Assembly (NCBI GenBank): GCA_900540495.1
Contig: UQGA01000002.1
Location: forward strand, 61,230 to 125,229
Direction of reading: 5' to 3'
DNA: 64,000 nucleotides
Origin: an uncultured Eubacteriales bacterium
Lineage (GTDB): Bacteria > Bacillota > Clostridia > Christensenellales > CAG-138
In this document: in pieces, positions 9,249 to 55,896 of the stretch
Position numbering within the stretch: the stretch's first letter is position 1
How the letters are laid out: each line of letters opens with the position of its first letter
The notes under the pieces: model-generated
Database searches by the model: none
The model's input: the letters and a program-made list of their open reading frames with translations, nothing else
Told to the model about the DNA's origin: nothing
Translations under genes and position numbers: made by a program

Positions 9249-10139
9249 TTATCCTTTCAGTCCGCCAAGGGTCATGCCCTGCGTCAGCTTCTTCTGCGCG
9301 CACATGTAGAGGATGAGCGTCGGCAGCATAACGAGCACCAGCCCGGCGTAGAGCTGGCCGAACTCCGCGGACGATTGCTGCGCCTGCGTCAGTTGCATCA
9401 ATCCGACCGGCAGCGTTTTCTTGCCATTCGGGTCGGTCAGCAGCGTCAGCGCGATGATGTACTCGTTCCAGAACGAGAGGAAGTTGAACAGAATGACCGT
9501 CACGATGGAGGGCTTGGCCATCGGGAAGATGATGCGCACCATGGTCCGCCCGTAACCGGCGCCGTCCACATAGGCGGCCTCCTCAAAGTCGTGCGGGAGC
9601 GTGGCGAAGTAGCCGGAGAGCAGATAGATCGTGAACGGCAGCGCGGTCGAAGCGTAGACGAGCGCCAGAATCACGATATTGTTGAGCAGGAAGCCGCTGC
9701 CGAAGATGCTCCTCAGGAAGTTATCCCCATCGACCAGCATCAGGAAGATCGGCACGACGATGTAGTTGACGTTGATGAACAGGCCCGCCATGAACAGCGT
9801 GTTGAACGTGCTCTTGAGGCGGAATTTGAAGCGCGAGAGGACGTAGGCGGCCGGCAGCGCCACCAGCAGCAGAATGCCCAGCGCGAGCGCGGTGACAAGG
9901 ATGGAGTTGAACAGATATTCGCCCATCCGCGCCTTGTTCCACGCATCGATAAAGTTCTGGAAGTAGAACCCGGCGGGCAACGCCCAGGGGTTGCCATAGA
10001 ACTCGCTGTTCTCCTTGACGGAGGCCATGAACACCCACGCCACCGGCACGATGATGAGGATGGCGAGCGTGATGAGCGCCACGTAGATAAAGATTTTAAC
10101 GATGCGGTCCCCCGCCGGGGATTTTTCGGATTGCTTCAT
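9249..10139 (-). CDS. Carbohydrate ABC transporter permease (MalG-type)
   Basis: 296-aa polytopic ORF with an EAA-like loop (FEEAAYVDGAGYGRTMVRIIFPMAKP). Confidence 0.85.
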   Translation of the reverse strand: MKQSEKSPAGDRIVKIFIYVALITLAILIIVPVAWVFMASVKENSEFYGNPWALPAGFYFQNFIDAWNKARMGEYLFNSILVTALALGILLLVALPAAYVLSRFKFRLKSTFNTLFMAGLFINVNYIVVPIFLMLVDGDNFLRSIFGSGFLLNNIVILALVYASTALPFTIYLLSGYFATLPHDFEEAAYVDGAGYGRTMVRIIFPMAKPSIVTVILFNFLSFWNEYIIALTLLTDPNGKKTLPVGLMQLTQAQQSSAEFGQLYAGLVLVMLPTLILYMCAQKKLTQGMTLGGLKG

Positions 10140-10151
10140 GTGGACACCCCC

Positions 10152-11063
10152 TCAAAACTCCAGCACGTCGCGCTTGGTCACCCGGTTGACGAGCGCGGAG
10201 AGCGCAAACGAGAACAGGAACACGATCGCACCGATGGCCATGCCGTAACCATAGGTGGAGTTGGTATACGCCTGCTTGTACATGTAGGAAAGCGCCACCT
10301 CGGACGCACCGTTCGGCCCGCCGCTGGTCATGGCCTTGACGAACAGGAACGCCATGTTGATCGTGCTGATGATGAAAAACGTCAGCGTCGTACGGATATT
10401 GGTCCAGATCAGCGGGATCGTAATCTGGAAAAACTGGCGGATGCGGCCTGCGCCGTCCAGCCCGGCGCTTTCGTACAGGCTGACGGGGACGCTGGCCATG
10501 GAAGCCATGTACATCACCATGTAGTAACCGACCGCCTGCCAGATCATGGCGATGATCAGGCTCAGCATGACCATGCTTTCGCCCTTCCACAGGATGGAGA
10601 TCGTTTTCCCGCTGAAGAAGGAGAGCAGGCTGTTGAGCATACCGTTGTTGGTGCTGTAGATGGCGGAAAAGATCGCCGAGATGACGACCACGGAAAGAAT
10701 GTTCGGGATGTAGAACACGATGCGGAAAAAGTTCTGGCCGCGGATCTTCTCGCGCGTCAGGATGCCGGCAAAGACCAGCGCCAGCGCAAACGTCACGAGC
10801 GTGACCGCAACGATCAGCAGGATGGTGTTCTGCATGGAGCGGATAAAGTTGGCGTCGCCAAAGAGCGTGACGAAGTTCTCCAGCCCGACAAAGGTCTGTG
10901 TCGTGGAATAGGCGCTGCGACGGAACAGGGACATCCAGAACACATTCAGCGTCGGGATCAGCATGAATACGGTGAACAGGATTACGGCCGGCGCCAGGCA
11001 CAGAACGATAAAACGGCCGGTACGGCCTCTCGAACGGTTCACGATTGAGCTCCCTCCTTCCAT
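10152..11063 (-). CDS. Carbohydrate ABC transporter permease (MalF-type)
   Basis: 303-aa polytopic ORF with an EAA-like loop (YESAGLDGAGRIRQFFQITIPL). Confidence 0.85.
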   Translation of the reverse strand: MEGGSSIVNRSRGRTGRFIVLCLAPAVILFTVFMLIPTLNVFWMSLFRRSAYSTTQTFVGLENFVTLFGDANFIRSMQNTILLIVAVTLVTFALALVFAGILTREKIRGQNFFRIVFYIPNILSVVVISAIFSAIYSTNNGMLNSLLSFFSGKTISILWKGESMVMLSLIIAMIWQAVGYYMVMYMASMASVPVSLYESAGLDGAGRIRQFFQITIPLIWTNIRTTLTFFIISTINMAFLFVKAMTSGGPNGASEVALSYMYKQAYTNSTYGYGMAIGAIVFLFSFALSALVNRVTKRDVLEF

Positions 11064-11123
11064 GAAAGAGACGGGGGACGGCGGTGCGTCCCCCGTCGGA
11101 TGAACGGAGATACGGAATCAACC

Positions 11124-12440
11124 CTATTTGAGGTTGTCGCGCATCTGGTCGCTTGCGGCACGGATGCCGTCGATCCACTCCTGCTCGGTGATGGTGCCGG
11201 CCACCAGCGAGTTGACCGGATCGAACCACACGGTGCGGTTGTCGAGGCCCTCGATCGGGTCAAAGGCGGCGAAGTTGCCCATGGCCGCCTTCGCGCCGTT
11301 GTCGTAGATGGCGTAGAAGAGCTGGTTGTCGCCCTCGAGCTTGTCGGCGATGCCGAGCACCGGCTGGATGGCGCCGGCAGCGGCGAAGATCTCACAGGCC
11401 TTGTCGCTGTACAGGAAGGCGATGAACTGCTTGGCGGCATCCTGATTCTGCGAGCCGCTCGGGATCCAGGCCTGCTCAAACCAGGTGTAGCTGTACTGGT
11501 CGCCGCCCTCGGAGACCGCGGGCAGGGCGGTCATGCCCCAGCGGAACGTATCCGGACGCGGGGAGTCGGCCATCTCGCCGACGATCCAGGTGCCGTTGGG
11601 CATGAAGAGCGCCTTGTCGTCCAACACGAGCTGCTGGTTCATCTTGAAATCCTGGTCGTTGGCCTGCGCCGGGGTGGTGGGCTCGGTGTAGGTGGCGAGC
11701 TTGGCCACGATGTCAAAGCACGTCTGCGCTTCCGGCGTATCCCAGATGCCCTCTTCGTAATGCGTCGCCTTGTCGAAGAATTCCGGGCCGCCCACGGAGT
11801 ACATCAGCGCATAGAAGAATGCGTCAAAGTAGCCGGTGGTGGGGTAGGTGAACAGGTAGATGCCCTCGGCGAGCGCCTTGTCGCCCAGCTCCCACATCTC
11901 GTCCCACGTGGTCGGGACGGTCCAGCCCTTCTCGTCGAACAGGCCTGCGTCATAGAACAGACCGCAGGGCGAGTAGAACATCGGCGCCAGATAGGTCTTG
12001 CCGTCGCCGTAGGGGTTGGTCAGCGAGGTCTCGGTGAAGCCGCCGGCGATCTTGTCGGACACCTTCGCCTCTTCGCCCGGTACCGTCATGGACAGCACGT
12101 CGGTGATATCGACGAGGTTGTTGTCCTTGATAAAGGTTTCCGTCAGCGCGTCCTCACGGCCGGTCGCCAGATGGATCACGTCCGGATAATCGCCCGCCTT
12201 CATCGAGGGGCCGATCACATCCTCCAGGTTCTTGTCGGTCACCAGTTCCACTTCGATGCCTGTCACCTCGGTGAACGCGTCGCAAACCTGCTGCCACATC
12301 TCCGTGCCGTAGGCGGTTTCAATGGCAGCGACCTTGATCGTCTGCGCCGTGGCGTCGTCGCCGTTCTGGCCGTCGGTCGTGCAGGCGGCAAGACTCAGCG
12401 CCATGGCGAGCACAAGAACGAGAGCCAATACCTTTCTCAT
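11124..12440 (-). CDS. Sugar ABC transporter substrate-binding lipoprotein (probable GNB/LNB-binding)
   Basis: 438 aa. Lipobox LSLAAC. Family-1 extracellular solute-binding protein features. First gene of the minus-strand operon. SD AAGGAGGA upstream. Confidence 0.8.
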   Translation of the reverse strand: MRKVLALVLVLAMALSLAACTTDGQNGDDATAQTIKVAAIETAYGTEMWQQVCDAFTEVTGIEVELVTDKNLEDVIGPSMKAGDYPDVIHLATGREDALTETFIKDNNLVDITDVLSMTVPGEEAKVSDKIAGGFTETSLTNPYGDGKTYLAPMFYSPCGLFYDAGLFDEKGWTVPTTWDEMWELGDKALAEGIYLFTYPTTGYFDAFFYALMYSVGGPEFFDKATHYEEGIWDTPEAQTCFDIVAKLATYTEPTTPAQANDQDFKMNQQLVLDDKALFMPNGTWIVGEMADSPRPDTFRWGMTALPAVSEGGDQYSYTWFEQAWIPSGSQNQDAAKQFIAFLYSDKACEIFAAAGAIQPVLGIADKLEGDNQLFYAIYDNGAKAAMGNFAAFDPIEGLDNRTVWFDPVNSLVAGTITEQEWIDGIRAASDQMRDNLK

Positions 12441-22242: not shown

Positions 22243-23070
22243 TCAGAGCCAGTCAAGCTCATGGCGAATCTCCAGCACGGAGGCGTAGCCGCCGGCGCGC
22301 ATCCGTTCGAGCAGCGCGCGCAGCTCCGCCGGTGCCCCGGCGGATGCCGGCAGCAGCGCGAGCAGCGCCGCCCCGAAGCCGCGCAGGTCGTCCGCCGCAT
22401 CGCCGTGCTGCGGCACGGGCGGCACGTACAGGCAGGGCATGTCCGGCGCGCCGGGAATGCCCGCCGGGAAGTACCAGATCGACGCGGTCGACGGCGCGCC
22501 GTGTACGGCGCCCGTCCCGCCCAGACTGTGGAGGACGAGCAGCGCGTCGCAAAGCCGCCGCAGCGCGTCGGTCAGCGCCGCGCCGTCCGGCGGCACATCG
22601 GCCAGGGTTCGAAGCGGCAGGGCGGTTACGGTGAGGAACCGGCCGTCCGCCTCAAACGCGTCGAGCGGGGCAACGATGGCGTTGCAGGCGGCAAGCGTGC
22701 GCAGCGACGCGGCGCGGGCCAAACAGGCGTCCCGCATGGCGGGCTCCATGGGCCTTGCCGCAAGGCGTATCCGGCTGCCGCAGGACGTATCGAATCCGGC
22801 GCACACATAGGCGCCGGCGTCGACTCCGGCCGGCAGCGCCGCCCCGACGAGGTAGCGCCCGTGCAGCAGCGCGCCCGGCGGCAGCGGCGCAGCCCCGTCA
22901 TCCGGCACGGCGTGCAGCAAGCGCAAACAGGCCGGGCAGCGCCGCGACAGCGGCCCGACCGGCCCAAAGCAATGCGGGCAGCGCCGCGCCGCGCGCGGCG
23001 CGCGCGCCGGGTTGTTACGACAGGACCTGCGCAATGTCGGCGATGGTATCCGCCGAGAGCGGATCGGCAA
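22243..23070 (-). CDS. Zinc-ribbon protein with a degenerate protein-kinase-like domain (predicted pseudokinase)
   Basis: CPHCFGPVGPLSRRCPAC ribbon, then LLHGRYLVG...; the kinase K, HRD and DFG positions are not conserved (LHSLGGTGAVHGAPSTAS). Only TTG starts are available (23070 or 23034), and both overlap the 3' end of the M3 peptidase gene. A terminator lies downstream. Confidence 0.55.
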   Translation of the reverse strand: MPIRSRRIPSPTLRRSCRNNPARAPRAARRCPHCFGPVGPLSRRCPACLRLLHAVPDDGAAPLPPGALLHGRYLVGAALPAGVDAGAYVCAGFDTSCGSRIRLAARPMEPAMRDACLARAASLRTLAACNAIVAPLDAFEADGRFLTVTALPLRTLADVPPDGAALTDALRRLCDALLVLHSLGGTGAVHGAPSTASIWYFPAGIPGAPDMPCLYVPPVPQHGDAADDLRGFGAALLALLPASAGAPAELRALLERMRAGGYASVLEIRHELDWL

Positions 23071-24889
23071 GGCCGGCGGCCACGAGCGTTTCGCGGAAAT
23101 CCGTGTAGGGCCCGCGCTGCAGGATCGTCAGGTAGGCGTTTCTGGCGGCGTCCGCGTCGGTCTGCGCCAGGTCCCAGAGTTCGAGCGACGCGATCATGCT
23201 TGTGGCATAACTGATGTAGTACATCGGCGTCTGGAACGTGTGCGGGATCATCGTCCACTCGCAACCCGTGTACCCGTACAGGTCGGCAAAGCCGTATTCC
23301 TGCGCCAGCTTGTAGTAGAGCGCGTTCATCTCTTCGAGCGTCATATCCGGATCGGCATAGACGGCCTGCTGGAACTCATCCTCCATGCAGCCGGAGAGCA
23401 CCGAGTACAGCGCGTCCGACAGCCGGGAGGCCAGCGCCGCTTCCGCAGCCTCGTCGGAGCCGTAAAGCCGGTCAAAATAGGCGGTCATCAACAGCTCGAG
23501 CCCCTGCGAATCGACCTCCGCCAGGTCAAGTGACTCGGAGACGCTCCAGCCGCTGGCCGGGCTGACGAAGTAGTTGGTGTAGTGCCCAAGCTCGTGGATC
23601 AGCGTCCCCGTGTTGTAGAACGAGTCCTCCCATGCGGTGAACATGAAGGGCGAAGAGTAGTTTGCAAAATAGGTCGTGAAGCTCGACTCCATCTTGTTCT
23701 CGTTTGCCTCGAAATCGTACAGGCCGTATTCAACCATGTAGTCGAGCGCTTCGCACACCTGCGGCGAGAAATCCAGCAACACGCCCCGCAGCTTTTCAAC
23801 GAACTCCTCCAACGGGAACGAGTCCAGACTGAGGTCGTACTCGCTGTAAACGCTCATGAAAACATAGGTATAATAGAGCGGCACGAGGTATTCCTTTACT
23901 GCTGTGTGGAGCGCCTGTGCCTCCGTCACGGTGAAGTCACGCCCGTAGTAGTCGTAACCATAGGCGGCGTAACTGCCGTAGCCGAGCTTGGCGGCGATGT
24001 CGCTGCGCAGCGCCAGCAGGTCCAGATAGATTTCTCCGGCCTCCGCGTTGAGCTGTGCGACATACGCGCAGTACAGGCGGTAGTATTCGTCGTAGTCCTG
24101 CGCCGCGATCTCGCCGATCTGCTCCATCGTATAGGTGCGCCCGCCTTCCTTGAGCACGAACGAGGAGAGCAGGTCGTCATAGGTCTGCACGAGCTTCTGC
24201 TCCTCCTCGAGCAGCGGCTGGATGGACTCGTCGTTGAGCCTGTCGCCCGCCACGACGGCGTCAGCGAAATCTTCGCCCCAACGCTCCAGCGCTTCGTCGC
24301 CACGGTCGAGCAGCGCCAGCGCCACATCCGTCATCGCCAGATCGATCCGGTTCAACTCGGTCTGCAGACGCGTGTACTCGTCCCGGTATTCGGCGTCGGA
24401 GACGTCGTGCGCGTAGTACACATAGCAGAGCGAGAGCTGCGAAGAGGCTTCGTTGAATTGGCTGAGCGCCTCGTCGTAGCGGTCGAGCAGCTCCTTGGTG
24501 GGCTTCCCGGCTTCCGCATCCTGAAGCAGATCTTCGAGCAGCGACGAAAGCGCCTCGGTATCCGGCGCTTCGTAGACCATCTCGGAAAACGGGATGTTCG
24601 GGTGCTCGACCGGCGTTTTTACGGGCGCGTCCGGTTCTTCTGACGGATCGGGTGCGCTCGGCTTGCTTGGCGCATCCGGCACACCGGGCGTGTCCGGCCC
24701 GTCGGGCGGCTGGACGGCGGGGTCGTCCGTTTCTCCGGAAACGGCCTTGCGCACGCCCTCGGCGACGTTGGCGAACAGGATGCTCGAGCAGGCGCATCCG
24801 GCGCTGCAACCTGCGAGCACAAGCGCAAGCAGCAGCGGCAGCACGCGCTTCAACAGGGAAATACCGGCGGTTTTCATCATCTTTTTCAT
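23015..24889 (-). CDS. M3 family oligoendopeptidase (PepF-like), lipoprotein
   Basis: 624 aa. Signal/lipobox LLLALVLAGC. Zinc motif HELGHY. Pro/Asp-rich linker after the signal peptide. Confidence 0.85.
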   Translation of the reverse strand: MKKMMKTAGISLLKRVLPLLLALVLAGCSAGCACSSILFANVAEGVRKAVSGETDDPAVQPPDGPDTPGVPDAPSKPSAPDPSEEPDAPVKTPVEHPNIPFSEMVYEAPDTEALSSLLEDLLQDAEAGKPTKELLDRYDEALSQFNEASSQLSLCYVYYAHDVSDAEYRDEYTRLQTELNRIDLAMTDVALALLDRGDEALERWGEDFADAVVAGDRLNDESIQPLLEEEQKLVQTYDDLLSSFVLKEGGRTYTMEQIGEIAAQDYDEYYRLYCAYVAQLNAEAGEIYLDLLALRSDIAAKLGYGSYAAYGYDYYGRDFTVTEAQALHTAVKEYLVPLYYTYVFMSVYSEYDLSLDSFPLEEFVEKLRGVLLDFSPQVCEALDYMVEYGLYDFEANENKMESSFTTYFANYSSPFMFTAWEDSFYNTGTLIHELGHYTNYFVSPASGWSVSESLDLAEVDSQGLELLMTAYFDRLYGSDEAAEAALASRLSDALYSVLSGCMEDEFQQAVYADPDMTLEEMNALYYKLAQEYGFADLYGYTGCEWTMIPHTFQTPMYYISYATSMIASLELWDLAQTDADAARNAYLTILQRGPYTDFRETLVAAGLADPLSADTIADIAQVLS

Positions 24890-35911: not shown

Positions 35912-36058
35912 GCCTGCCGGTAGCAAAACCGCATATCCGCCAAAGACAGTCGGTGGCCGCAAGGCGTAAATCCTACCGAGGCGCAGGCGCGGAGCGATCC
36001 GCGCGGGCAATTCGCTCACATGCGTTCCCTGTCGTTTGGCGGGGAACGCTTTTTCATG
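35912..36058 (+). promoter_or_regulatory. Ribosomal protein L10 leader (autoregulatory attenuator) with intrinsic terminator
   Basis: Roughly 150-nt structured leader upstream of rplJ. It ends in GCGTTCCC-N11-GGGGAACGC-TTTTTCATGTTTTT (36022-36058). Position and architecture match the Firmicutes L10 leader. No covariance model was run. Confidence 0.6.
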
Positions 36059-36085
36059 TTTTTGCGAGGAGGTGAAACAACAACC

Positions 36086-36613
36086 ATGGCAAACCAGAAG
36101 AACATCGAGATGAAGGCCGCACAGGTCACCGAGGTGCAGGACAAGATCCAGCGCGCCAGCTCGGTCGTCGCGTTCGATTACCGCGGGCTGACGGTCGATG
36201 AGGTGACCCAACTGCGCAATGAGATGCGCAAGGCGGGCGTGGAGTACATCGTGCTCAAGAACCACATCGTCGGTCGCGCGTGCGACGCCGCGGGCGTCGA
36301 CCCGTCGTTCCACGAGGTGCTGCACGGGCCGAGCGCCTTTGCATTCGGGTATGAGGATGCGGTCATGCCGGCCAAGCTCCTCAAGGACTTCATCAAGAAG
36401 GTCAAGAAGTGCGAGATCAAGGGCGGTATCGTCGAGGGCGCCGTCACCGGCGCGAAGGATCTCGACGCCATCGCGGACCTGCCGTCGCGCGATGTGCTCA
36501 TCGCCCGCCTGCTTGGCAGCATGATGTCGCCGATCTCCGGCCTTGCGATCGTGCTCGATCAGATCGCCAAGAAGATGGGCGGGGACGCGCCCGCCGCGGC
36601 TGCAGCCGAGTAA
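36086..36613 (+). CDS. rplJ: 50S ribosomal protein L10
   Basis: Start [14 protein letters not shown] at 36086 (GAGGAGGTG upstream), 175 aa. Confidence 0.95.
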
Positions 36614-36656
36614 CCGAAACGACCACCAACACAAATTATTATGGGAGGAAATACCA

Positions 36657-37028
36657 ATGGATAAAGAGCAACTGATTGCTGATATCAAAGCGATGTCCGT
36701 GCTGGAGCTCAGCGAGCTCGTCAAGGCGCTGGAGGAGGAGTTCGGCGTATCCGCCGCCGCGACCGCCGTTGCCGTCGCCGGCCCCGCGACCGCCGCTGCC
36801 GCCGAGGTGGAGGAGAAGACCGAGTTCGACGTCGTGCTCAAGGAAGTCGGACCCGAGAAGATCAAGGTCATCAAGACCGTCCGCGAGCTCACCGGCCTCG
36901 GCCTCAAGGAGGCCAAGGACGTCGTGGACAACGCGCCCAAGCCGGTCAAGGAAGGCGTTTCCAAGGAAGAGGCCGAGAAGATCGCGGCCGCTTTCAAAGA
37001 GGTTGGCGCGACCTGCGAGATCAAATAA
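36657..37028 (+). CDS. rplL: 50S ribosomal protein L7/L12
   Basis: [31 protein letters not shown] ... [26 protein letters not shown], 123 aa. Confidence 0.95.
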
Positions 37029-37050
37029 CCAAATCGCAAAAAACACCGCC

Positions 37051-37075
37051 GAAGGGGAGCATATCGCTCCCCTTC
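37051..37075 (+). terminator. Hairpin after rplL (probable partial terminator)
   Basis: GAAGGGGAGC-atatc-GCTCCCCTTC, 10-bp stem. The downstream tract ACGTCTCTTTCGTC is only weakly U-rich. Confidence 0.45.
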
Positions 37076-37091
37076 ACGTCTCTTTCGTCGG

Positions 37092-39146
37092 ATGAAGACA
37101 CCGTTTGGCAGAAGAATCGTTGCTTGCACGGCGGCCGCCCTGCTTCTCCCCGCGCTTGTTGGCTGTGGGAAGGGGAGGGAGGCGTCATCATCGTCGCCGT
37201 CGCCCGTATCGGTCCGGCTCGTCACGCCGGCCGCGACTGCCTCGCCCGTGAGCATCACGCCCGGCGCCACGCCGCCCATCGTGGCGTCGGCCCCGGACGC
37301 GGACGACCTCGTGCGCGTGACCGACTACGTGCCGAACGTTTCGCAACGGCTCGCCTATGCGACAGCGGACAATTTTACCGGCCGCCGGATCTATGATTTT
37401 ACGGACGCCTATCTGCGCTATGGAACGGTGCAAAAGCTCGAAAAGGCGGTTGCGGCGCTCGACGAGATGGGGCTGACGCTGGTGATTTGGGATGCTTACT
37501 GGCCGCTTGCGGCGCAGCGAGCGCTCTTTGCGGCCTTTCCCGATCCCGCGTATGTTTCGGACCCGGAAACCGGCAGCCGGACGCATTGCCGCGGCGGCGC
37601 CGTGGATGTGACGTTGGCGGATGAGTACGGGGCGCTGCTGGAGATGCCCTCCGGCTTTGACGATTTTACGGCGCGGGCCGACCGCGACTATTTGGACTGC
37701 TCGGCCGTTGCCGCCGCCAACGCCCGCCTGTTGCAGGAGGTCATGGAGGATTGCGGTTTTGTCGGCTATGCGGGCGAGTGGTGGCATTACAGCGACGCCG
37801 AGGCGTATCCGGTCGAGGAGACCTTCACGCCGCGGCCGGCGGCACGCTATCGAATTTCCGAAGGCGCGCCGGCCGGGCTGGGGGCCGGACCGGACGGCGG
37901 ATCTGCGTTCGCCTCCGTTGCGCCGGGGGAGGAGGTGCAGCTGCTGGCATGCAACGGCGCGTACGCGCTTGTCCGCTACCGGGAGGCTGCGGGGTATGTG
38001 GCTTCGGAACGCCTCGTGCCGCTGCCGGAGGACGGCTTTGCGCGGCCGCTGCTCTGGCGTGCCGAATGCGAGGAATACATCAACCTGCGAAGCACGCCGG
38101 GCGGGGACGACCTCATCGGCACGATCCGTGCCGGCGAGGTCATGGCGTTGCTGTCATGGGACGGGCGCTACGCGCAGGTGTGTCATGCCGGTCGGACCGG
38201 CTATGTGCTTTCGAGCTATATCCGGCCCGCCGACGAGGCATATCTGTCGGCGCTGCTGCCCACCGTGACGCCCACGGACACCTATACCTATGAGACCCTG
38301 CTGGAGGATGCCGCCTCGCTGGCGGAGGCATATCCCGGGAAAATAGAGGTGGAGCGCATCGGCGCGTCCGAAATGGGACGGGACCTCCTCGTCCTGCGGC
38401 TCGGCGAGGCGGACGCGGCGCACCATGTCCTGCTGCAGGGGGCGATCCACGGGCGCGAGCACATGACCGCATGGCTGTTGATGGCGCTTGCGGATGACTG
38501 GGCGGGGCGTGGTCTGGCGGATGGAGATGTCTGCTGGCACATCGTCCCCATGTCCAATCCGGATGGCGTGACCGTTTCGCAAAGCGGTTCGCTGGACGGG
38601 GAACAGCTTGCCGTCTATCGGGCCGACGTACAGGCCGGCTTCACCGCGCTGGACGAGGCGGCGTATGCCCGGGCCTGGAAGGCGAACGGCCTGGGCACGG
38701 ATTTGAACCGGAATTTTCCGGCCGGCTGGGAGACGACCGCGCGGCGCAACGCGCCCTCCTCCGAGCGGTACGGCGGCGAAGCGCCGTTTTCCGCGGCGGA
38801 GACGGAGGCGCTGCGGGCGTATACGCTGCGATTCCCCTTCGATGCGACCGTCAGTTACCATGCCACCGGCAGCCTGCTCTATTACGGATATGGCGACGGG
38901 CAGCCCGTCAACAGCCGCTCGGCGGCGCTGGCGGACGGCATTTCGCTCGCAACCGGCTACCCGCTGCAGGGCGGCGGCGTGGACGGCGCGGGGTATAAGG
39001 ACTGGGCGGTGGAGGCGCTGGGCATCCCCTCCGTGACGGTCGAGATCGGGTGCGAAAGCGCGCCGCTTTCCGGGCGCGAGCTTTACAGCGCGTTTGTGCG
39101 CAACCGCACCGTGGCGGATGCGATTGTCCGTTGGCTGGAGGACTGA
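37092..39146 (+). CDS. Trimodular cell-wall peptidase lipoprotein: M15D (VanX/DdpX-like D-Ala-D-Ala dipeptidase), two SH3b domains, M14 carboxypeptidase
   Basis: Lipobox LPALVGC. M15D motifs RLAYATADNFTGRRIY, SRTHCRGGAVDVTL, GEWWHY. Two SH3b-like segments. M14 motifs HGREH, NPDG, and a C-terminal His/Glu region. 684 aa. Confidence 0.75.
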   Translation: MKTPFGRRIVACTAAALLLPALVGCGKGREASSSSPSPVSVRLVTPAATASPVSITPGATPPIVASAPDADDLVRVTDYVPNVSQRLAYATADNFTGRRIYDFTDAYLRYGTVQKLEKAVAALDEMGLTLVIWDAYWPLAAQRALFAAFPDPAYVSDPETGSRTHCRGGAVDVTLADEYGALLEMPSGFDDFTARADRDYLDCSAVAAANARLLQEVMEDCGFVGYAGEWWHYSDAEAYPVEETFTPRPAARYRISEGAPAGLGAGPDGGSAFASVAPGEEVQLLACNGAYALVRYREAAGYVASERLVPLPEDGFARPLLWRAECEEYINLRSTPGGDDLIGTIRAGEVMALLSWDGRYAQVCHAGRTGYVLSSYIRPADEAYLSALLPTVTPTDTYTYETLLEDAASLAEAYPGKIEVERIGASEMGRDLLVLRLGEADAAHHVLLQGAIHGREHMTAWLLMALADDWAGRGLADGDVCWHIVPMSNPDGVTVSQSGSLDGEQLAVYRADVQAGFTALDEAAYARAWKANGLGTDLNRNFPAGWETTARRNAPSSERYGGEAPFSAAETEALRAYTLRFPFDATVSYHATGSLLYYGYGDGQPVNSRSAALADGISLATGYPLQGGGVDGAGYKDWAVEALGIPSVTVEIGCESAPLSGRELYSAFVRNRTVADAIVRWLED

Positions 39147-39164
39147 GCGGCCGCTCCCGCCGCC

Positions 39165-39686
39165 CTATTCCGCTTCGGGGTGTTCCTGGGGATCAGGGAT
39201 CAGATGGGGTTCTTCGGACGGGCGGTCGGCGGATTTCCCATGCTTGGCGCGCAAACGACAATGGAGCTCGTACAGCGCCGTACGATTTGAGTCCCATTTC
39301 AGCTTCCGGGCGGCTTCCGCACAGGACAACCAGGCGCATGCGGTATGTTCTTGCGACAATCTGATGCACGCATCCGCGGGACAAGCAAACGCGAAAGCAT
39401 ATTCCGGTATCACATAGACATCCTCGCGCCAGTGCCGGCGATGGGGTTCCCGAATCGCCTCGGCGGGAATATGGGCCACGCTTTCGAGCGCCATCCATTC
39501 GGTTGAACGGACGCCGCTCTCCTCAAACGCCTCCCGCCTTGCCGCTTCGAGAGGCGTTTCAGAATCCTCGCCGCCCCCGGCAATAAACTGCCATTGACCA
39601 GAGCCCGCACGACGGAACACGCAGAAAAGAGGCCGGCTGTCCACCACTCGATAGGGGATGGCAAGGATTTGAAACGCCGCCCGCAT
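39165..39686 (-). CDS. NUDIX hydrolase
   Basis: Nudix box GGGEDSETPLEAARREAFEESGV. Start MRAAFQIL at 39686 (GAGGAGG upstream). Confidence 0.85.
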   Translation of the reverse strand: MRAAFQILAIPYRVVDSRPLFCVFRRAGSGQWQFIAGGGEDSETPLEAARREAFEESGVRSTEWMALESVAHIPAEAIREPHRRHWREDVYVIPEYAFAFACPADACIRLSQEHTACAWLSCAEAARKLKWDSNRTALYELHCRLRAKHGKSADRPSEEPHLIPDPQEHPEAE

Positions 39687-40085
39687 GGCAATCCTCCTCA
39701 AGATCGATACGGCAGTTTAACATACATGGCGCGCCGCGGCAAGGGGACGCTCCGGAAGCGGCAGCGTGCCATCCATCCATTTTTCGTGATACGGCTGCAT
39801 CATCGCTGCCGAATACATGGTTCGGACAGGGTTGTGGGAGACGGATTTGTCAGACGGACGCCCGCCGGCGCTCGTTTTTTCAATTCGTTCTGCCGCAACT
39901 GTAACGGCCATTGCCGCAAAGGGGAGCAGCGTTCGACTCTGCCCCTGCGGCGCATCCGGCCGGCATCCTCCGAGGGATTCCTGCACGCAGAAATGAAACT
40001 CTCCCCACCTGAAGACGTTTTTTTGAGAGAACAGCAGGCTATTTCCCCATTCGATCCGGATTTCCTACAAATTTCGCCGGACGCA

Positions 40086-45746: not shown

Positions 45747-46526
45747 ATGGCGCGTATGGAGCAACAGCCGCTGATCGCGGTGCGCGAGGCAAAAAAGGTC
45801 TATCGGGTGGGCAGCGTGGACGTGCATGCGCTGCGCGGCGTCAACCTCACGATCGAAGCGGGGGAGCTGTGCTGTATCCTTGGCCGCTCCGGTTCGGGCA
45901 AGAGTACGTTGCTCAATGTGCTGGCCGGCCTTGAACATGTGACTTCCGGAGAGCTGATCGTCGCCGGCAGGCGCCTTGAGCGCATGAATCAGAGCGAGCT
46001 GATCCGCTTCCGGCAGCAGCACGTCGGGTTTATCTTCCAATCCTTCAACCTCATGCCGTATTATAACGCGCTTGAAAACGTCGCGTTCCCGCTGGCGTTT
46101 CGCGGCGTGCCCACGTATCGGCGCAACCGCCTGGCGGCGGATATGCTGAGGCTCGTCGGGCTGGAGACGCACATGAAGCACAAGCCTTCGCAGATGAGCG
46201 GCGGGCAGCAGCAGCGCGTGGGCATTGCGCGCGCGTTGGTGACGGACCCGGAGATCGTGTTTGCCGACGAGCCGACCGGCAACCTCGATTCCACGACGTC
46301 CGACGAGGTCATGCAGGTGATCTGCCGCATTCTGCGCGAGAAGGGGAAGACGCTCATCATGGTCACGCACGATGCGAACATGGCCGCTTATGCGGACAAG
46401 GTCGTTCATTTGCTTGACGGCCGGATTGTGGACGTCCGGCGGCAGGCGCCGATGGGCGCCCCGGCGGACGCAGCGCAGCCGGAGGCGGCCGATAAGGAAA
46501 CGGATCAGGAGGAACAGGGAGCATGA
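45747..46526 (+). CDS. ABC transporter ATP-binding protein (MacB/FtsE/LolD type)
   Basis: GRSGSGKSTLLNVLAGLE, MSGGQQQRVGIARAL, VFADEPTGNLD. Start is ambiguous (45747 or 45756). Confidence 0.85.
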   Translation: MARMEQQPLIAVREAKKVYRVGSVDVHALRGVNLTIEAGELCCILGRSGSGKSTLLNVLAGLEHVTSGELIVAGRRLERMNQSELIRFRQQHVGFIFQSFNLMPYYNALENVAFPLAFRGVPTYRRNRLAADMLRLVGLETHMKHKPSQMSGGQQQRVGIARALVTDPEIVFADEPTGNLDSTTSDEVMQVICRILREKGKTLIMVTHDANMAAYADKVVHLLDGRIVDVRRQAPMGAPADAAQPEAADKETDQEEQGA

Positions 46527-48175
46527 AACGCAAATGGTTGACAGGGGCAAAGGCGCGGCGGCTGCTTGCGTTGCTGCTCGGCGCGATGCTGCTGGCGGGT
46601 TGCTTTGGCACGGCGCTGGCAGAGGATGAGGACCTGCCCGACGAGCCGGTAAGCGGCTCAGAACCCGTGGACGTACCGACGTTAACGCCTACGCCGTCCC
46701 CTACGCCAAGTCCTACCCCGACGACGATCCATGTGGTGCTCGTATCGCCTACGCCGCAGGCCGGGGACGACGGGCAACCGGACGGCGGCGGGGAAGAGGA
46801 GCCTGCGCCCGAGCCGGATGCAGGCGGGGAGCGCGTCGAATTGTCCCGGTGGCTGGGCGGCAAGCAGGAGAACGGCGAGGTTCCGGCGCTCAATGGCGAG
46901 CGTGGCGGCAAGCTCACGATCACGCTGCCCCTGGTCGCGCGATATGACCTTGCGGACGTGGAGATCGAGCCGGTCTACAGCACGAGCCTCGACAGCTTCC
47001 CGTTCGTGCTGCCCACGATGTCCCTCGCTGTCAAAAAGGCGGAGGACCCGAACGGCGGCGGCACCGGCGCTCTGGCGGCGGGCGAATGCTGGCAGGTCGT
47101 GTACAAGGACCTCACGTTCAGCAACGACATCACCAAGGGCGTCAAGCAGGTGGATTTTCAGGTGCGCTATACCTATCAGGGCGTGCGCGCGGAGGAGACC
47201 ATCAGCGTGTTCGTCAACGTTACCAAGGGCGTTTCCACGGGCGGCGGTGGCGGCGGGGTCACGTTCCGTTCGCAGCCGAAACTGATCGTGGAGAAGTATT
47301 CGCTCGATACCGATCGGCTTTATGCGGGCGAGCCGTTTGAGCTGACGCTCGAACTGCGCAACACTTCGCCCGACGAGGCGATCAAAAACATCCAGCTTCA
47401 CATGAGCGAGGAGACGGGCGTTGTGCTGCCCGCGGAGAACGGGAGCAACACCATCTATATCAGGGAAATCGAGAAGGAGGGGCTGTCCGTCGTCAAGGTA
47501 CGGCTCCAGGCGGCGCCGGACGCGGAGGCGAAGGCGTATGCGCTTTCCCTCTCGTTCAGCTATGACGGCGTGTCGAGCAAGCAGGCGTATACCGCCGAGG
47601 AATCGATCACGCTCCCGGTCCAGCAGCGCATTCGCATCAAGTGCGACGATCCGCTCGTGTACGACGAGCCGTGGGTGGGGCAGACGATCGCCGTGGGCGT
47701 GTCGCTCTACAACATGGGGCGATCCACCGTGTACAACTGTATGGTCGGCGTAGAGGGCGAGGGTCTCTCCCTGCCGGAGACGTACTTTGGCGGCAATGTC
47801 GCAAGCGGCGGTACGCTGCGCGCCGAATTTGACGTGCAGACGGATGTGGCCGGCGACATCGCGGGGACGGTCGTCATCACGTACGAGGATGTATACGGCG
47901 AGCAGATGGAGGAGCGGCTGCCCCTGCCGCTGCTGGTAAATGAACCGATCGTCATCGATCCCGTACCCGGTATGGACGGCGTGATCGACGGGACGGGGGC
48001 CGATCTGCCCGCTGTGGACGGCTATCCGGCCATGGGCGGCGCGGACGGCATGGCGGACGGGGGTGGCGTCGCCTGGTACTGGTGGGCGCTGGCCATCGCG
48101 GCCGTCGCCGCCGGCGTCGTGGTGCTCGGCGTGCGGCGGCACAGGGCGCGCAAGAAGGAGCTGGAGGCGCTATGA
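46523..48175 (+). CDS. Exported, C-terminally membrane-anchored protein with tandem beta-sandwich (CARDB/COG1361-like) modules
   Basis: 550 aa. Signal peptide with LLAGC. TPTPSPTPSPTPTT linker. Repeated modules (YAGEPFELTLELRNTS..., VGQTIAVGVSLYNMG...). C-terminal TM WYWWALAIAAVAAGVVVLGV followed by RRHRARKK. ATGA overlaps on both sides. Confidence 0.65.
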   Translation: MKRKWLTGAKARRLLALLLGAMLLAGCFGTALAEDEDLPDEPVSGSEPVDVPTLTPTPSPTPSPTPTTIHVVLVSPTPQAGDDGQPDGGGEEEPAPEPDAGGERVELSRWLGGKQENGEVPALNGERGGKLTITLPLVARYDLADVEIEPVYSTSLDSFPFVLPTMSLAVKKAEDPNGGGTGALAAGECWQVVYKDLTFSNDITKGVKQVDFQVRYTYQGVRAEETISVFVNVTKGVSTGGGGGGVTFRSQPKLIVEKYSLDTDRLYAGEPFELTLELRNTSPDEAIKNIQLHMSEETGVVLPAENGSNTIYIREIEKEGLSVVKVRLQAAPDAEAKAYALSLSFSYDGVSSKQAYTAEESITLPVQQRIRIKCDDPLVYDEPWVGQTIAVGVSLYNMGRSTVYNCMVGVEGEGLSLPETYFGGNVASGGTLRAEFDVQTDVAGDIAGTVVITYEDVYGEQMEERLPLPLLVNEPIVIDPVPGMDGVIDGTGADLPAVDGYPAMGGADGMADGGGVAWYWWALAIAAVAAGVVVLGVRRHRARKKELEAL

Positions 48176-53244: not shown

Positions 53245-55896
53245 ATGAGGAACCGATTTGGGAGAGCTCTTGCGGCGCTGCTGGCCATGGCGCTGCTCCT
53301 TGCGACGCTGCCGGGCGCGACGACGGCGCAGGCGACGGACGCAGCGGAAACGGCGGCGGAGGCGCTGCCGCTCGTGCTTACGCTCCCCGCGCAGCCGGAG
53401 GGCGCCGTCGTGGCGGACGCCGCCTCCGTAACGGATCTGTCTGAGCGATTGACGGACGGCAACGCCAATACGCGCGTTCCCTGCGCGCTGGGCGAGACGA
53501 TCCGGGCCGACTGGCCGGACGCCGGGCAGGCGGCGGGGACGCTGTATCTGGAATGGCATGCCGCGCCGGCGGACGGCTATACGCTCGTGCAGTACGGGGC
53601 GGCCGGGGAGGAACTGTCGCGCGAACTGGTCAGGGATGGCATCCTGAACCGGACGTTCACGCTCGAGGCGGGGTGCAGCGGCGTCGAACTGCTCGTGGGA
53701 GACGGGCTTATCCCGCAGGAGGAGACGGAGTCGCAACGAAAGGAACGGCTGAGCGAGGATCGCATGGCGCTTTCCGGGCTGACCGTTTATGGCGAGGGCG
53801 TCCTGCCGGCAACGGTGCAGCAGTGGACGACAGGCGATCCGGAGCCGGATGTGCTGCTCGTCGTCGCCCAACCGGGGGAGGAATTTACCGTATTTGGCGG
53901 GCTGCTGCCGGTGCTGCTCGATCATGGGGCGGACGTGCGCGTGCTGTTCATGACGGAGACGACGGCGCAGGCGCGCAGCGAGTCGTTCGCGGCGCTGTAT
54001 GCGCTGGGGCTGCGCGCGCAGCCCATCGTCGCCGGGTTTACCGGCCGCGGCGGCACGGATTACGACATGCTGCGCGGCAAGAAGGAATGGGGCGCGGGCG
54101 AAGCGCCCAGCCGCGTGCTGGAGGATATCATCGGCGCGCTGCGGCCGGCGGTCGTCGTCACCTATTCGAGCGACCGCGCGCAGGAGAACGGCATGCACCG
54201 CCTCACCGGCGAGGCGGTGGAGGACGCGCTCGCCGCGCTCGCCGGCGGGGAGGAGACCTCCTGGCAGCCGCAGAAGTTTTACATGCTGGCCACGGCGCAG
54301 CAGACGGCGGAGGCGGCGCAGGCCACCGTGCCGGATACCGCGGCGCCGCTTGTTGCCTACGGCGGGCAGAGCGCCGATGCGCTCGCGCAGCGGGCGCTGG
54401 ATACCGGCTATGCCTCGCAGGCGGTGCTGCGCCCGCAGGCCGCCGCGGGGTGCGCCTACCGGCTCGTGACGAGCGCCGTCGGCGCGGATACCGGCGCGGA
54501 CCTGCTCGAGCACATCGACGTGCCGCCCGCGCCGACCGCCACGCCGGAGCCGACGCCGGAACCCACGCCGGAGCCGACGATGGAGCCCACGCCGGAGCCC
54601 ACGGCGGAACCGGCGGCCGCGCCGGCGGGGACGGATGCGGCCGGCGGCGCGCTGGCGGGCCTTGCCGGCGTGACGCAGGAGCGGCTGCTGCTCATGGGCA
54701 CGCTCGTGCTCGCCGGGCTGGCCGGGACGCTCGCGCTGCTGCTGTGGCGCAGCCGCCGCCCGGCCGCGGCGCGGAAGGGGAAGCGGCCCGCGCCGCATGT
54801 GGCCGTGTGCCTGCTGCCGCTGCTTGCCATGCTGCTCGCCGCGGCGCTGTTGCTGCTTTTGCCGGGGGCGGACGCGCAGCAGGCGGCCGGCGCGCAGGGC
54901 GAAGCGGCGCTGCCGGAGCAGACGAGCGCGCCGCAGGCGCCCGCCACGGCCGCGCCGGCGGAAGAACCCACGCCGGAGCCGACGATAGAGCCCACGCCGG
55001 AGCCCACGCCGCACCCGTGGGCGGAGTATTTCCGCGCGGAGGACGACCCGGAGGAGGTCGTGGTGGCCGATGCGGAGCGGGGCGTGTGGGAATACCGCAC
55101 CGATACGCTCTCCATCCTGATCGAGCGCCGCTCTAACGACAAGCCCATGACCTATTTCGTGGCGCACATCCGCATGCGCGACGTCGATTCGTTCCGCGCC
55201 GTTTTCTCAAACGCGCTGCAAAACGGCGGCGGCCCCAAGCAGATGCCGTGGAAGGTCGCGCGCATGAACAAGGCGGTGCTGCTCATTACGGGCGACAACC
55301 TCATCCATCAGGAGAAGGAGGATAAGGGCGTGATGATCCGCAACGGCTTCCTCTATTATGAGGGCCAGGCGTCGGATACCCTGGCGCTCTATCCGGACAT
55401 GAGCATGCGCGTGTTCGACCGCAAGACCGTCACCGCGCAGGAGCTGCTCGAGGCCGGCGTGCTCAACAGCTACGGCTTCATGTACGACCCCATCCTCGTG
55501 CGCGACGGCGCGATCGTGGAATCCGTGGCGTCCAGCCGGATCAAGGGCAACAACCCGCGCACCGGCATCGGCATGGTGGAGCCGGGGCACTTTGTGGCCA
55601 TCGTCGTGGACGGGCGGCAGGCCAAGGTCAAGGTCGACGGCGAGACCGTGCCCTACAGTGCCGGCGCGACGATGACGGAGCTTGCGCAGCTGTTCCTCGA
55701 CGAGGGCTGCACCGTCGCCTACAACCTCGACGGCGGCATCTCCGCGTGCATGGTGTTCATGGGCGAACAGATCAACACCCACCTGGGCGAGGGGGAGAGC
55801 TACCAGCGCTCCATGCCCGAGGCGATGGCCTGGGGCTATTCGGACCTGGTGCCATCCGTGGACGATCCGGTCACCGGCACGGGCGAGCGGAAGTAG
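53245..55896 (+). CDS. Mosaic envelope protein: signal peptide, N-terminal sugar-binding-like and degenerate PIG-L/LmbE-like region, central TM hairpin with Pro-rich linkers, C-terminal phosphodiester glycosidase (DUF2233/NAGPA) domain
   Basis: 883 aa. Signal ALLAMALLLATLPGATTAQA. LLVVAQPGEEFTVFGG sits where LmbE enzymes have AHPDDE. TM helices LLLMGTLVLAGLAGTLALLLW and VAVCLLPLLAMLLAAALLLLL. C-terminal region is DUF2233-like (AYNLDGGIS). Confidence 0.65.
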   Translation: MRNRFGRALAALLAMALLLATLPGATTAQATDAAETAAEALPLVLTLPAQPEGAVVADAASVTDLSERLTDGNANTRVPCALGETIRADWPDAGQAAGTLYLEWHAAPADGYTLVQYGAAGEELSRELVRDGILNRTFTLEAGCSGVELLVGDGLIPQEETESQRKERLSEDRMALSGLTVYGEGVLPATVQQWTTGDPEPDVLLVVAQPGEEFTVFGGLLPVLLDHGADVRVLFMTETTAQARSESFAALYALGLRAQPIVAGFTGRGGTDYDMLRGKKEWGAGEAPSRVLEDIIGALRPAVVVTYSSDRAQENGMHRLTGEAVEDALAALAGGEETSWQPQKFYMLATAQQTAEAAQATVPDTAAPLVAYGGQSADALAQRALDTGYASQAVLRPQAAAGCAYRLVTSAVGADTGADLLEHIDVPPAPTATPEPTPEPTPEPTMEPTPEPTAEPAAAPAGTDAAGGALAGLAGVTQERLLLMGTLVLAGLAGTLALLLWRSRRPAAARKGKRPAPHVAVCLLPLLAMLLAAALLLLLPGADAQQAAGAQGEAALPEQTSAPQAPATAAPAEEPTPEPTIEPTPEPTPHPWAEYFRAEDDPEEVVVADAERGVWEYRTDTLSILIERRSNDKPMTYFVAHIRMRDVDSFRAVFSNALQNGGGPKQMPWKVARMNKAVLLITGDNLIHQEKEDKGVMIRNGFLYYEGQASDTLALYPDMSMRVFDRKTVTAQELLEAGVLNSYGFMYDPILVRDGAIVESVASSRIKGNNPRTGIGMVEPGHFVAIVVDGRQAKVKVDGETVPYSAGATMTELAQLFLDEGCTVAYNLDGGISACMVFMGEQINTHLGEGESYQRSMPEAMAWGYSDLVPSVDDPVTGTGERK
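54541..54612 (+). repeat. Six tandem 12-nt units encoding (T-P-E-P)n linker
   Basis: acgccggagccg / acgccggaaccc / acgccggagccg / acgatggagccc / acgccggagccc / acggcggaaccg. Confidence 0.9.
54967..55014 (+). repeat. Second (P-T-P-E)n tandem 12-nt repeat block
   Basis: cccacgccggag / ccgacgatagag / cccacgccggag / cccacgccgcac. Confidence 0.85.

Follow-up and report, generated by a model that had tools for sequence, protein, structure and literature searches.

The window analysed here is a 64,000-nucleotide stretch of contig UQGA01000002.1 from an uncultured Eubacteriales bacterium. Its gene at 37092–39146 encodes a predicted lipoprotein in which a VanX/DdpX-type M15D dipeptidase domain, two SH3b modules and an M14 zinc carboxypeptidase domain are joined. 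The protein belongs to a family of such fusions, whose members would be wall-bound enzymes with two activities, and the catalytic arginine of its M15D domain is replaced by tryptophan (Arg137Trp). This replacement looks like a recent polymorphism that most likely knocks down the M15D activity. Taken as a whole, this account of the family and of the allele is probably correct. The gene is laid out as follows.

37092..39146, + strand: coding sequence, ATG start, for a 684-residue predicted lipoprotein with the order M15D, SH3b, SH3b, M14 (open reading frame, Pfam and AlphaFold2 model).
37092..37166, + strand: signal peptide with the lipobox L22-V23-G24-C25 (sequence pattern; Cys25 is invariant in 115 aligned homologues).
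37167..37295, + strand: disordered tether rich in Ser, Pro, Thr and Ala, residues 26–68 (sequence; predicted local distance difference test score, pLDDT, below 50 at residues 24–57).
37296..37832, + strand: VanX/DdpX-type M15D domain, residues 69–247, with the zinc ligands H165, D172 and H232, the catalytic base E229, and conserved Y89, D134 and D190.
37500..37502, + strand: codon 137, reading TGG for Trp where VanX has Arg71; most conspecific alleles read CGG for Arg here (allele comparison).
37833..38027, + strand: first SH3b-like module, diverged, residues 248–312 (aligns with SH3_3-positive copies of homologues; Pfam-negative in the window protein).
38043..38231, + strand: second SH3b module (SH3_3), residues ~318–380 (Pfam and AlphaFold2 model).
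38274..39143, + strand: M14 zinc carboxypeptidase domain, residues 395–684, with the zinc triad H453/E456/H590, the carboxylate clamp N539-R540 and the catalytic Glu E651.

According to Pfam, residues 71–245 match Peptidase_M15 (PF01427; E = 1.6e-34, 119.9 bits against a cutoff of 27), residues 330–377 match SH3_3 (PF08239; 32.6 bits in the whole protein and 27.5 bits in the isolated segment, cutoff 27), and residues 408–656 match Peptidase_M14 (PF00246; E = 1.5e-32, 113.8 bits against a cutoff of 21.6). The N-terminal module is thus assigned to the family that includes VanX and DdpX and not to another one. The motifs that an earlier note had read from the letters of this gene are all in place: LVGC at 22–25, IWDAYWP at 132–138, HCRGGAVD at 165–172, EWWH at 229–232, HGRE at 453–456 and NPDG at 489–492, with the zinc-binding and catalytic motifs of M15D intact. 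The N-terminus, MKTPFGRRIVACTAAALLLPALVGC, shows a basic n-region and a hydrophobic h-region and satisfies the lipobox [LVI][ASTVI][GAS]C at the level of the pattern only. It is a textbook lipoprotein signal by sequence, and lipidation is predicted.

The AlphaFold2 model, which was built on the alignment of the 115 homologues, is confident (mean pLDDT 89.8, predicted template modelling score 0.82). It consists of the disordered tether (residues ~24–57), M15D, two all-beta modules (residues ~245–312 and 321–379) and M14. The first module (residues ~248–312) has no Pfam match in the window protein. Homologues bear one, two or three SH3_3 copies, and this region is aligned with the SH3_3-matching copies of P0005, P0012, P0101 and P0009. 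Because of this alignment and the confident beta-rich fold modelled at residues ~245–312, the first module can be considered as a diverged SH3b copy. The description with two SH3b domains, which the earlier note gave together with M15D and M14, is reasonable on these grounds.

The M15D domain is closest to DdpX. In NCBIfam the DdpX equivalog (NF007557) ranks first with 160.5 bits, just under its cutoff of 176, and the VanX equivalog (NF033115) scores 74.1 bits against a cutoff of 320. Escherichia coli DdpX (ddpX from MG1655) and the window M15D are 40% identical over 175 residues, and they align end to end with 3 gap positions. VanX (PDB 1R44) matches the 115-sequence family profile with E = 3.9e-27. 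H165, D172, H232 and E229 align with H116, D123, H184 and E181 of VanX, and also with DdpX. H165 and H232 are invariant in the 115 homologues, and D172 and E229 are at least 90% conserved. Y89, D134 and D190 are invariant across the family alignments; their counterparts in the VanX structure presumably hold the free amino end of the dipeptide. Based on this DdpX-like fold and these residues, we infer that the Arg form of the domain would be a dipeptidase for D-Ala-D-Ala or X-D-Ala, not a carboxypeptidase for stem peptides.

The domain thus shares with DdpX and VanX (MEROPS M15D, PF01427) the fold family, the zinc ligands H-x6-D...H and the ExxH base. DdpX and VanX are cytoplasmic. They are stand-alone proteins of ~190–200 residues, whereas the window domain lies behind a lipobox and is fused to SH3b and M14. 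The window domain also scores under both equivalog cutoffs, and in the window allele it is without the catalytic Arg.

The M14 half holds a complete carboxypeptidase catalytic set. H453, E456, H590, E651, N539 and R540 are all invariant in the family, and the HxxE...H triad and the equivalents of Glu270 and Asn144-Arg145 are present. The nearest structures are carboxypeptidases T, B and A (CPT, CPB and CPA; Foldseek E ~1e-17, template modelling score on the target ~0.7), which are also the best sequence matches (profile E from 2e-26 to 6e-21). These features are those of the M14A carboxypeptidases, such as CPT of Thermoactinomyces and CPB and CPA of insects and mammals. Unlike these enzymes, the window protein apparently has Lys in place of Arg127, and it has Lys at position 255, no pro-segment, an extra helical insert at residues ~497–528, and the fusion to SH3b and M15D. 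K530, which is invariant, was placed opposite Arg127 of CPA by our own mapping of the W-x motif (W529-K530 against W126-R127); the profile alignment is poor in this stretch. Lys is found at this position in 56 of the 58 related representatives of the 50%-identity set. The other lysine, K636, is likewise invariant and corresponds to residue 255, the S1' specificity position, occupied by Asp in CPB and by Ile in CPA. A basic group here might suit a C-terminal residue with a side-chain carboxylate, for example meso-diaminopimelic acid (meso-DAP), although the position hints at this only weakly.

MpaA, Csd4/Pgp1 and Lysinibacillus endopeptidase I (ENP1) are M14 enzymes that free meso-DAP from gamma-D-Glu-mDAP. 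Release of meso-DAP would suit the basic S1' residue and the wall-binding partner domain of the window protein as well. However, the MpaA equivalog scores only 20.7 bits against its NCBIfam cutoff of 157, PDB 5HXD is matched only with E ~4e-4 to 9e-3, and the metal motif of the window M14 is HGRE (HxxE), not QxxE as in Csd4 (PMC4220969). With CPT, CPB and CPA as the best matches, the assignment of this domain to a gamma-D-Glu-DAP/LD-carboxypeptidase-like type, which had been proposed from the letters alone, is not upheld. In the plasmid collection, the nearest stand-alone M14 protein is encoded by the Clostridium butyricum megaplasmid NZ_CP033248.1 (L098:2788-5912). It is 35% identical, and its gene adjoins an N-acetylmuramoyl-L-alanine amidase gene. 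A search with this protein returned only generic names of the kind "M14 family zinc carboxypeptidase". The amidase neighbour points weakly to wall peptides as the substrates of this M14 clade.

At E ≤ 1e-5 the homologues of the window protein fall into 418 clusters (90% identity), and M15 and M14 occur together in every one of the top 120. The M15D-SH3b-M14 fusion is seen in about 24 GTDB species; the species of the window was not among the hits of the GTDB scan, whose best match to the window protein is 75% identical. The carriers are mostly assemblies labelled Oscillospiraceae, Faecousia or "uncultured Clostridia", chiefly from the gut of humans, ruminants, deer, mice and chickens. A further set of about 53 species has M15D by itself or together with a single SH3b, mostly behind a lipobox, and SH3b-M14 proteins without M15D exist too among the 50%-identity representatives. 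Since M15D(-SH3b) and SH3b-M14 each occur alone, the window protein can be regarded as a fusion of two separately occurring modules. The fused family joins known kinds of domain. It is common in gut metagenome-assembled genomes of the Oscillospiraceae/Faecousia type, and the literature search found no paper on the fused M15D-SH3b-M14 architecture and no characterisation of it. A 2019 survey of cell-wall hydrolase architectures names no pairing of M15 with M14 (PMC6403190).

Judged by their lipoboxes, exported VanX-type enzymes are not unusual in this group. PcgL is a VanX homologue, a soluble single-domain periplasmic protein of a diderm. The earlier statement that VanX/DdpX-type enzymes are normally small and cytoplasmic went too far, given the periplasmic D-Ala-D-Ala dipeptidase PcgL of Salmonella (PMC3760250) and the roughly 50 gut Clostridia species in which M15D, alone or with one SH3b, mostly follows a lipobox. 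PcgL resembles the window protein in being a D-Ala-D-Ala dipeptidase outside the cytoplasmic membrane with natural loss-of-function alleles, a likeness drawn from description only. The window protein differs in that it is a predicted lipoprotein, presumably of a monoderm, and has wall-binding modules and a second catalytic one. ZrlA of Acinetobacter was considered as a lipoprotein precedent and rejected, as its domain is of another M15 type and bears a QxH motif.

Another arrangement was seen among the loci. In the metagenome-assembled contig CAMFBN010000014.1 (L049:1454-4732, + strand), an open reading frame of 1093 residues has an N-terminal BlaR1-type M56 signal-transducer domain at residues 7–280 (E = 1.5e-44) and a C-terminal VanX-type M15D domain at residues 852–1026 (E = 4e-34), in which the Arg is kept. 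It resembles a BlaR1-like sensor whose penicillin-binding sensor domain has been swapped for a D-Ala-D-Ala dipeptidase domain. L069 shows an M15D-SH3 motif pattern like that of L049.

These features suggest how the family works. The protein would be a lipid-anchored bifunctional zinc peptidase of a monoderm, Oscillospiraceae-like gut Clostridium. The flexible tether of ~45 residues would keep it at the outer face of the membrane, and one or two SH3b modules would hold it on peptidoglycan. The M15D half would split D-Ala-D-Ala or a similar X-D-Ala dipeptide, and the M14 half might take off a C-terminal residue, possibly DAP. The role of the family could be the turnover and salvage, or the trimming, of wall peptides at the interface of membrane and wall. 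An enzyme with two activities on wall peptides outside the membrane, as the earlier note imagined, is plausible. The family is widespread in abundant uncultured gut Oscillospiraceae. Extracellular cutting of D-Ala-D-Ala, and possibly of gamma-D-Glu-mDAP, would affect wall turnover, and such enzymes could alter the supply of D-amino acids and of DAP-containing, NOD-active muropeptides in the gut.

The main rival to a role in turnover and salvage is a role in the maturation of the cell's own nascent peptidoglycan. M15D would then act as a DD- or LD-carboxypeptidase like VanXY, VanY and LdcB, and M14 would shorten tripeptide stems like Csd4 and Pgp1, so that cross-linking or cell shape is controlled. 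The lipoprotein tether would adjoin the nascent wall, and the SH3b modules would bind insoluble peptidoglycan. LdcB (M15B), like VanXY, is a LAS-family zinc peptidase for D-Ala-terminated wall peptides; it is extracellular, acts on wall tetrapeptides, and has the same Arg/Glu pair at the zinc-bound water (PMC4087270). Besides, the gene adjoins an envelope-stress module of LiaF, DUF4097 and ABC-2 components in four related loci, and weak cross-matches to VanY (PF02557) occur in some homologues. However, the end-to-end alignment with so few gaps is to DdpX, a strict dipeptidase, and the three residues Y89, D134 and D190, which we take from VanX to hold the amino end of the dipeptide, are kept. 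LdcB and VanXY belong to the VanY-like subfamily, whereas the window domain matches PF01427 strongly and PF02557 not at all; the PF02557 matches of some homologues are marginal, and the VanX/DdpX model scores far above the VanY model. The M14 domain is also not of the Csd4 (QxxE) type. Maturation of the nascent wall is thus possible, but we consider it rather unlikely.

The second part of the account concerns residue 137. The motif WDxYRP reads IWDAYWP in the window protein. Trp137 stands opposite VanX Arg71 in the pairwise alignment to 1R44 and in the alignment to the family profile of 115 sequences, and it stands opposite the corresponding Arg of E. coli DdpX. The catalytic Arg is thus missing from the window allele, in agreement with the replacement that had been noticed in the sequence. 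A shifted or compensating Arg was considered and ruled out. No Arg is found at a shifted position in the alignments, Arg143 is present in R137 and W137 alleles alike, and within M15D only residue 137 differs between them.

In LAS-type zinc peptidases this Arg adjoins the zinc-bound water and contacts the scissile carbonyl or the oxyanion. Lessard and Walsh are said to have found in 1999 that R71 mutants of VanX drop by orders of magnitude in kcat. Arg71 of VanX has been cited as aiding both substrate binding and catalysis (PMC5778951). In LdcB, Arg120 forms a salt bridge with the product carboxylate at the zinc, and Arg or Lys is found at this position in orthologues. Arg120 and the catalytic Glu of LdcB form a pair like Arg127 and Glu270 of carboxypeptidase A (PMC4087270). 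As the Arg lies beside the zinc-bound water and no other change is seen in the domain, the W137 allele most likely has little M15D activity or none (hypomorph or null), and its SH3b and M14 modules are intact.

The Arg is otherwise a constant feature of the family. W-D-x-[YF]-R-P is kept in 120 of the 120 best homologues. Of the 150 best representatives at 50% identity, 65 bear M15D, and every one of these keeps the Arg, as do all 71 species-representative genomic loci with a recognisable M15D open reading frame. The 90%-identity cluster of the window protein contains 211 sequences, and 15 members of it are listed. Thirteen of these 15 have Arg137; Trp is found only in the sequence of the window itself (P0121) and in P0128. 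Both W alleles read TGG at this codon, and the Arg alleles read CGG. Counted by contigs, very roughly one-seventh of the listed membership is of the W type, a crude figure with 15 of 211 listed. In a separate metagenome-contig collection, the sole matching contig has CGG. The W protein of the window is found without any change on at least 19 contigs in three repositories (several ENA and Logan samples, and also NCBI). Six of these contigs were examined and are 100% identical over 2055 nucleotides. The second W allele, P0128, is on four further contigs.

The history of the W allele can be traced in the flanking nucleotides. The window allele, P0128 and the Arg allele P0131 agree throughout nucleotides 1–750 of the gene, the stretch for the signal peptide and all of M15D, save at nucleotide 409 (window 37500). 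Further downstream the allele of the window becomes mosaic and is P0126-like between nucleotides 753 and 1002, which indicates intragenic recombination. In the simplest history, a haplotype like P0131 would have undergone a single recent C>T transition (CGG to TGG) and would then have recombined. In the Arg alleles codon 137 sits in CCGG (window 37497–37505), and the change at 37500 strikes the inner C. If the organism has a 5-methylcytosine methylase of the HpaII type, recurrent mutation at a methyl-cytosine deamination hotspot may also be considered.

These facts indicate that Arg137Trp is most likely a young polymorphism segregating within the species, with Trp as the minority allele, and not a family trait. 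The transition would probably have crippled the M15D activity in this strain lineage and nothing else in the protein. The earlier note had suggested altered substrate specificity or an inactive binding module. Its idea of an inactive M15D half survives, in that an inactive or hypomorphic half is the likeliest outcome; as an evolved feature of the family it does not, with Trp in two of 15 listed conspecific alleles and in none of the 120, 71 and 65 sequences counted above. The replaced catalytic Arg would here be polymorphism of an ordinary kind among strains, and the enzyme would not be of a new design. There is a precedent for the natural inactivation of an exported VanX homologue: in the host-restricted Salmonella lineage S. 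Typhimurium DT2, pcgL has become a pseudogene (PMC3760250). P0131 and P0128, which differ in this active-site residue on an otherwise identical background, might serve as a natural point-mutant control when the M15D activity is to be assigned.

Several points weigh against this account of the family and the allele. How the side chain of Trp137 lies to the zinc is deduced from the alignment to VanX and DdpX only, and both bond specificities of the fused family are likewise deductions from sequence. The apparent replacement of the canonical Arg127 by Lys is unusual among M14A enzymes, and the gene neighbourhood offers no clue to a pathway. Moreover, the W allele occurs in many samples and on two recombinant backgrounds, so that it is not strongly counter-selected. 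This fits a dispensable activity, but it fits a retained or altered function as well.

The last point would be expected if the replacement were adaptive. In that case M15D could have become a non-hydrolytic binder of D-Ala-D-Ala or of stem peptides, or could have shifted its specificity, by which M14 would be retargeted or D-Ala-D-Ala termini spared. Binding without turnover is conceivable, as the zinc ligands and the other substrate-contact residues are intact, and the allele does persist on its two haplotype backgrounds. However, it arose by a single transition that is very recent, nothing else in the domain was substituted along with it, Trp is the minority allele, and Trp is never seen in the 250-plus other family members at three sampling depths. 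It is more plausible that the pocket is disrupted where a bulky indole takes over the oxyanion site from a guanidinium. Adaptive change is therefore improbable. One form of it is that selection keeps W137, in part of the gut population, as a catalytically dead D-Ala-D-Ala-binding "lectin" domain, which retargets the M14/SH3b enzyme to un-cross-linked pentapeptide stems or halts the destruction of D-Ala-D-Ala. If true, this would be a natural, segregating switch from an enzyme to a binding module in a wall hydrolase, and it may shape the DAP-type muropeptides seen by the host; we regard it as quite improbable, more so than adaptive change in general. A sequencing or assembly error in this genome as the source of the Trp codon is scarcely conceivable: it differs by one base from the cluster representative, but the W protein is shared by independent assemblies from different runs and repositories, with the 2055-nucleotide gene identical on at least six of the 19 contigs and the second W allele on four.

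Recent loss or reduction of the M15D activity in one strain lineage of a putative wall-bound lipoprotein family remains the preferred explanation, and the genes around 37092–39146 can be described beside it. The gene comes directly after rplL.

37051..37075, + strand: strong terminator-like hairpin after rplL, GAAGGGGAGC-ATATC-GCTCCCCTTC, with a 10-bp stem (7 GC pairs) and a weak T-tail, 17 nucleotides before the ATG.

No sigma-70 or promoter-like site was found in 36500–39800, and transcription from rplJL may continue into the lipoprotein gene. Upstream of rplJ there is an L10 leader RNA (35922–36064). In the window rpoB and rpoC do not follow rplL, which is unusual, and the lipoprotein gene takes that position. 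The gene order rplL, lipoprotein gene, NUDIX and glutamine synthetase III is confined to the species of the window; in the 75%-identity relative only glutamine synthetase III is seen downstream. The NUDIX gene is convergent (window 39165–39701, - strand). In the window it encodes 173 residues and is separated from the stop codon of the lipoprotein gene by 18 nucleotides, and in other conspecific haplotypes (L085-L097) it encodes 157 residues with a gap of 59 nucleotides.

Clustering of the flanking open reading frames over 77 loci revealed no general neighbour. A LysR-type neighbour, recognised by sequence motif only, is present in 21 of the 77. The LiaF/ABC-2 module is near the fusion gene in 4–7 fusion loci. 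In a Faecousia/Oscillospiraceae subclade (L014, L020, L022 and L031), a LiaF-like protein, a DUF4097 "toastrack" protein, and an ABC-2 ATPase and permease are encoded after the fusion gene. By its sequences, this set is a module of the cell-envelope stress type. Examples, all downstream of the fusion gene, are as follows.

L020:5709-6383: LiaF/DUF4097/ABC-2 module.
L022:3599-4411: LiaF/DUF4097/ABC-2 module.
L031:3148-4377: LiaF/DUF4097/ABC-2 module.
L014:4146-5048: LiaF/DUF4097/ABC-2 module.

Elsewhere in the window, two large predicted exported proteins have no Pfam match. One, at 23015–24889 (- strand), has 624 residues and a lipobox-like ...LVLAGCSAGC; the other, at 46523–48175 (+ strand), has 550 residues and is encoded directly after an ABC ATPase-like open reading frame. 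An 883-residue secreted protein with a C-terminal NAGPA phosphodiester-glycosidase domain is encoded at 53245–55896 (+ strand). A lacto-N-biose/galacto-N-biose phosphorylase is encoded at 6829–9003 (- strand) and adjoins open reading frames at 9249–12440 (- strand) that resemble a sugar ABC transporter. The predicted functions of this locus fit a gut bacterium using mucin or milk glycans.

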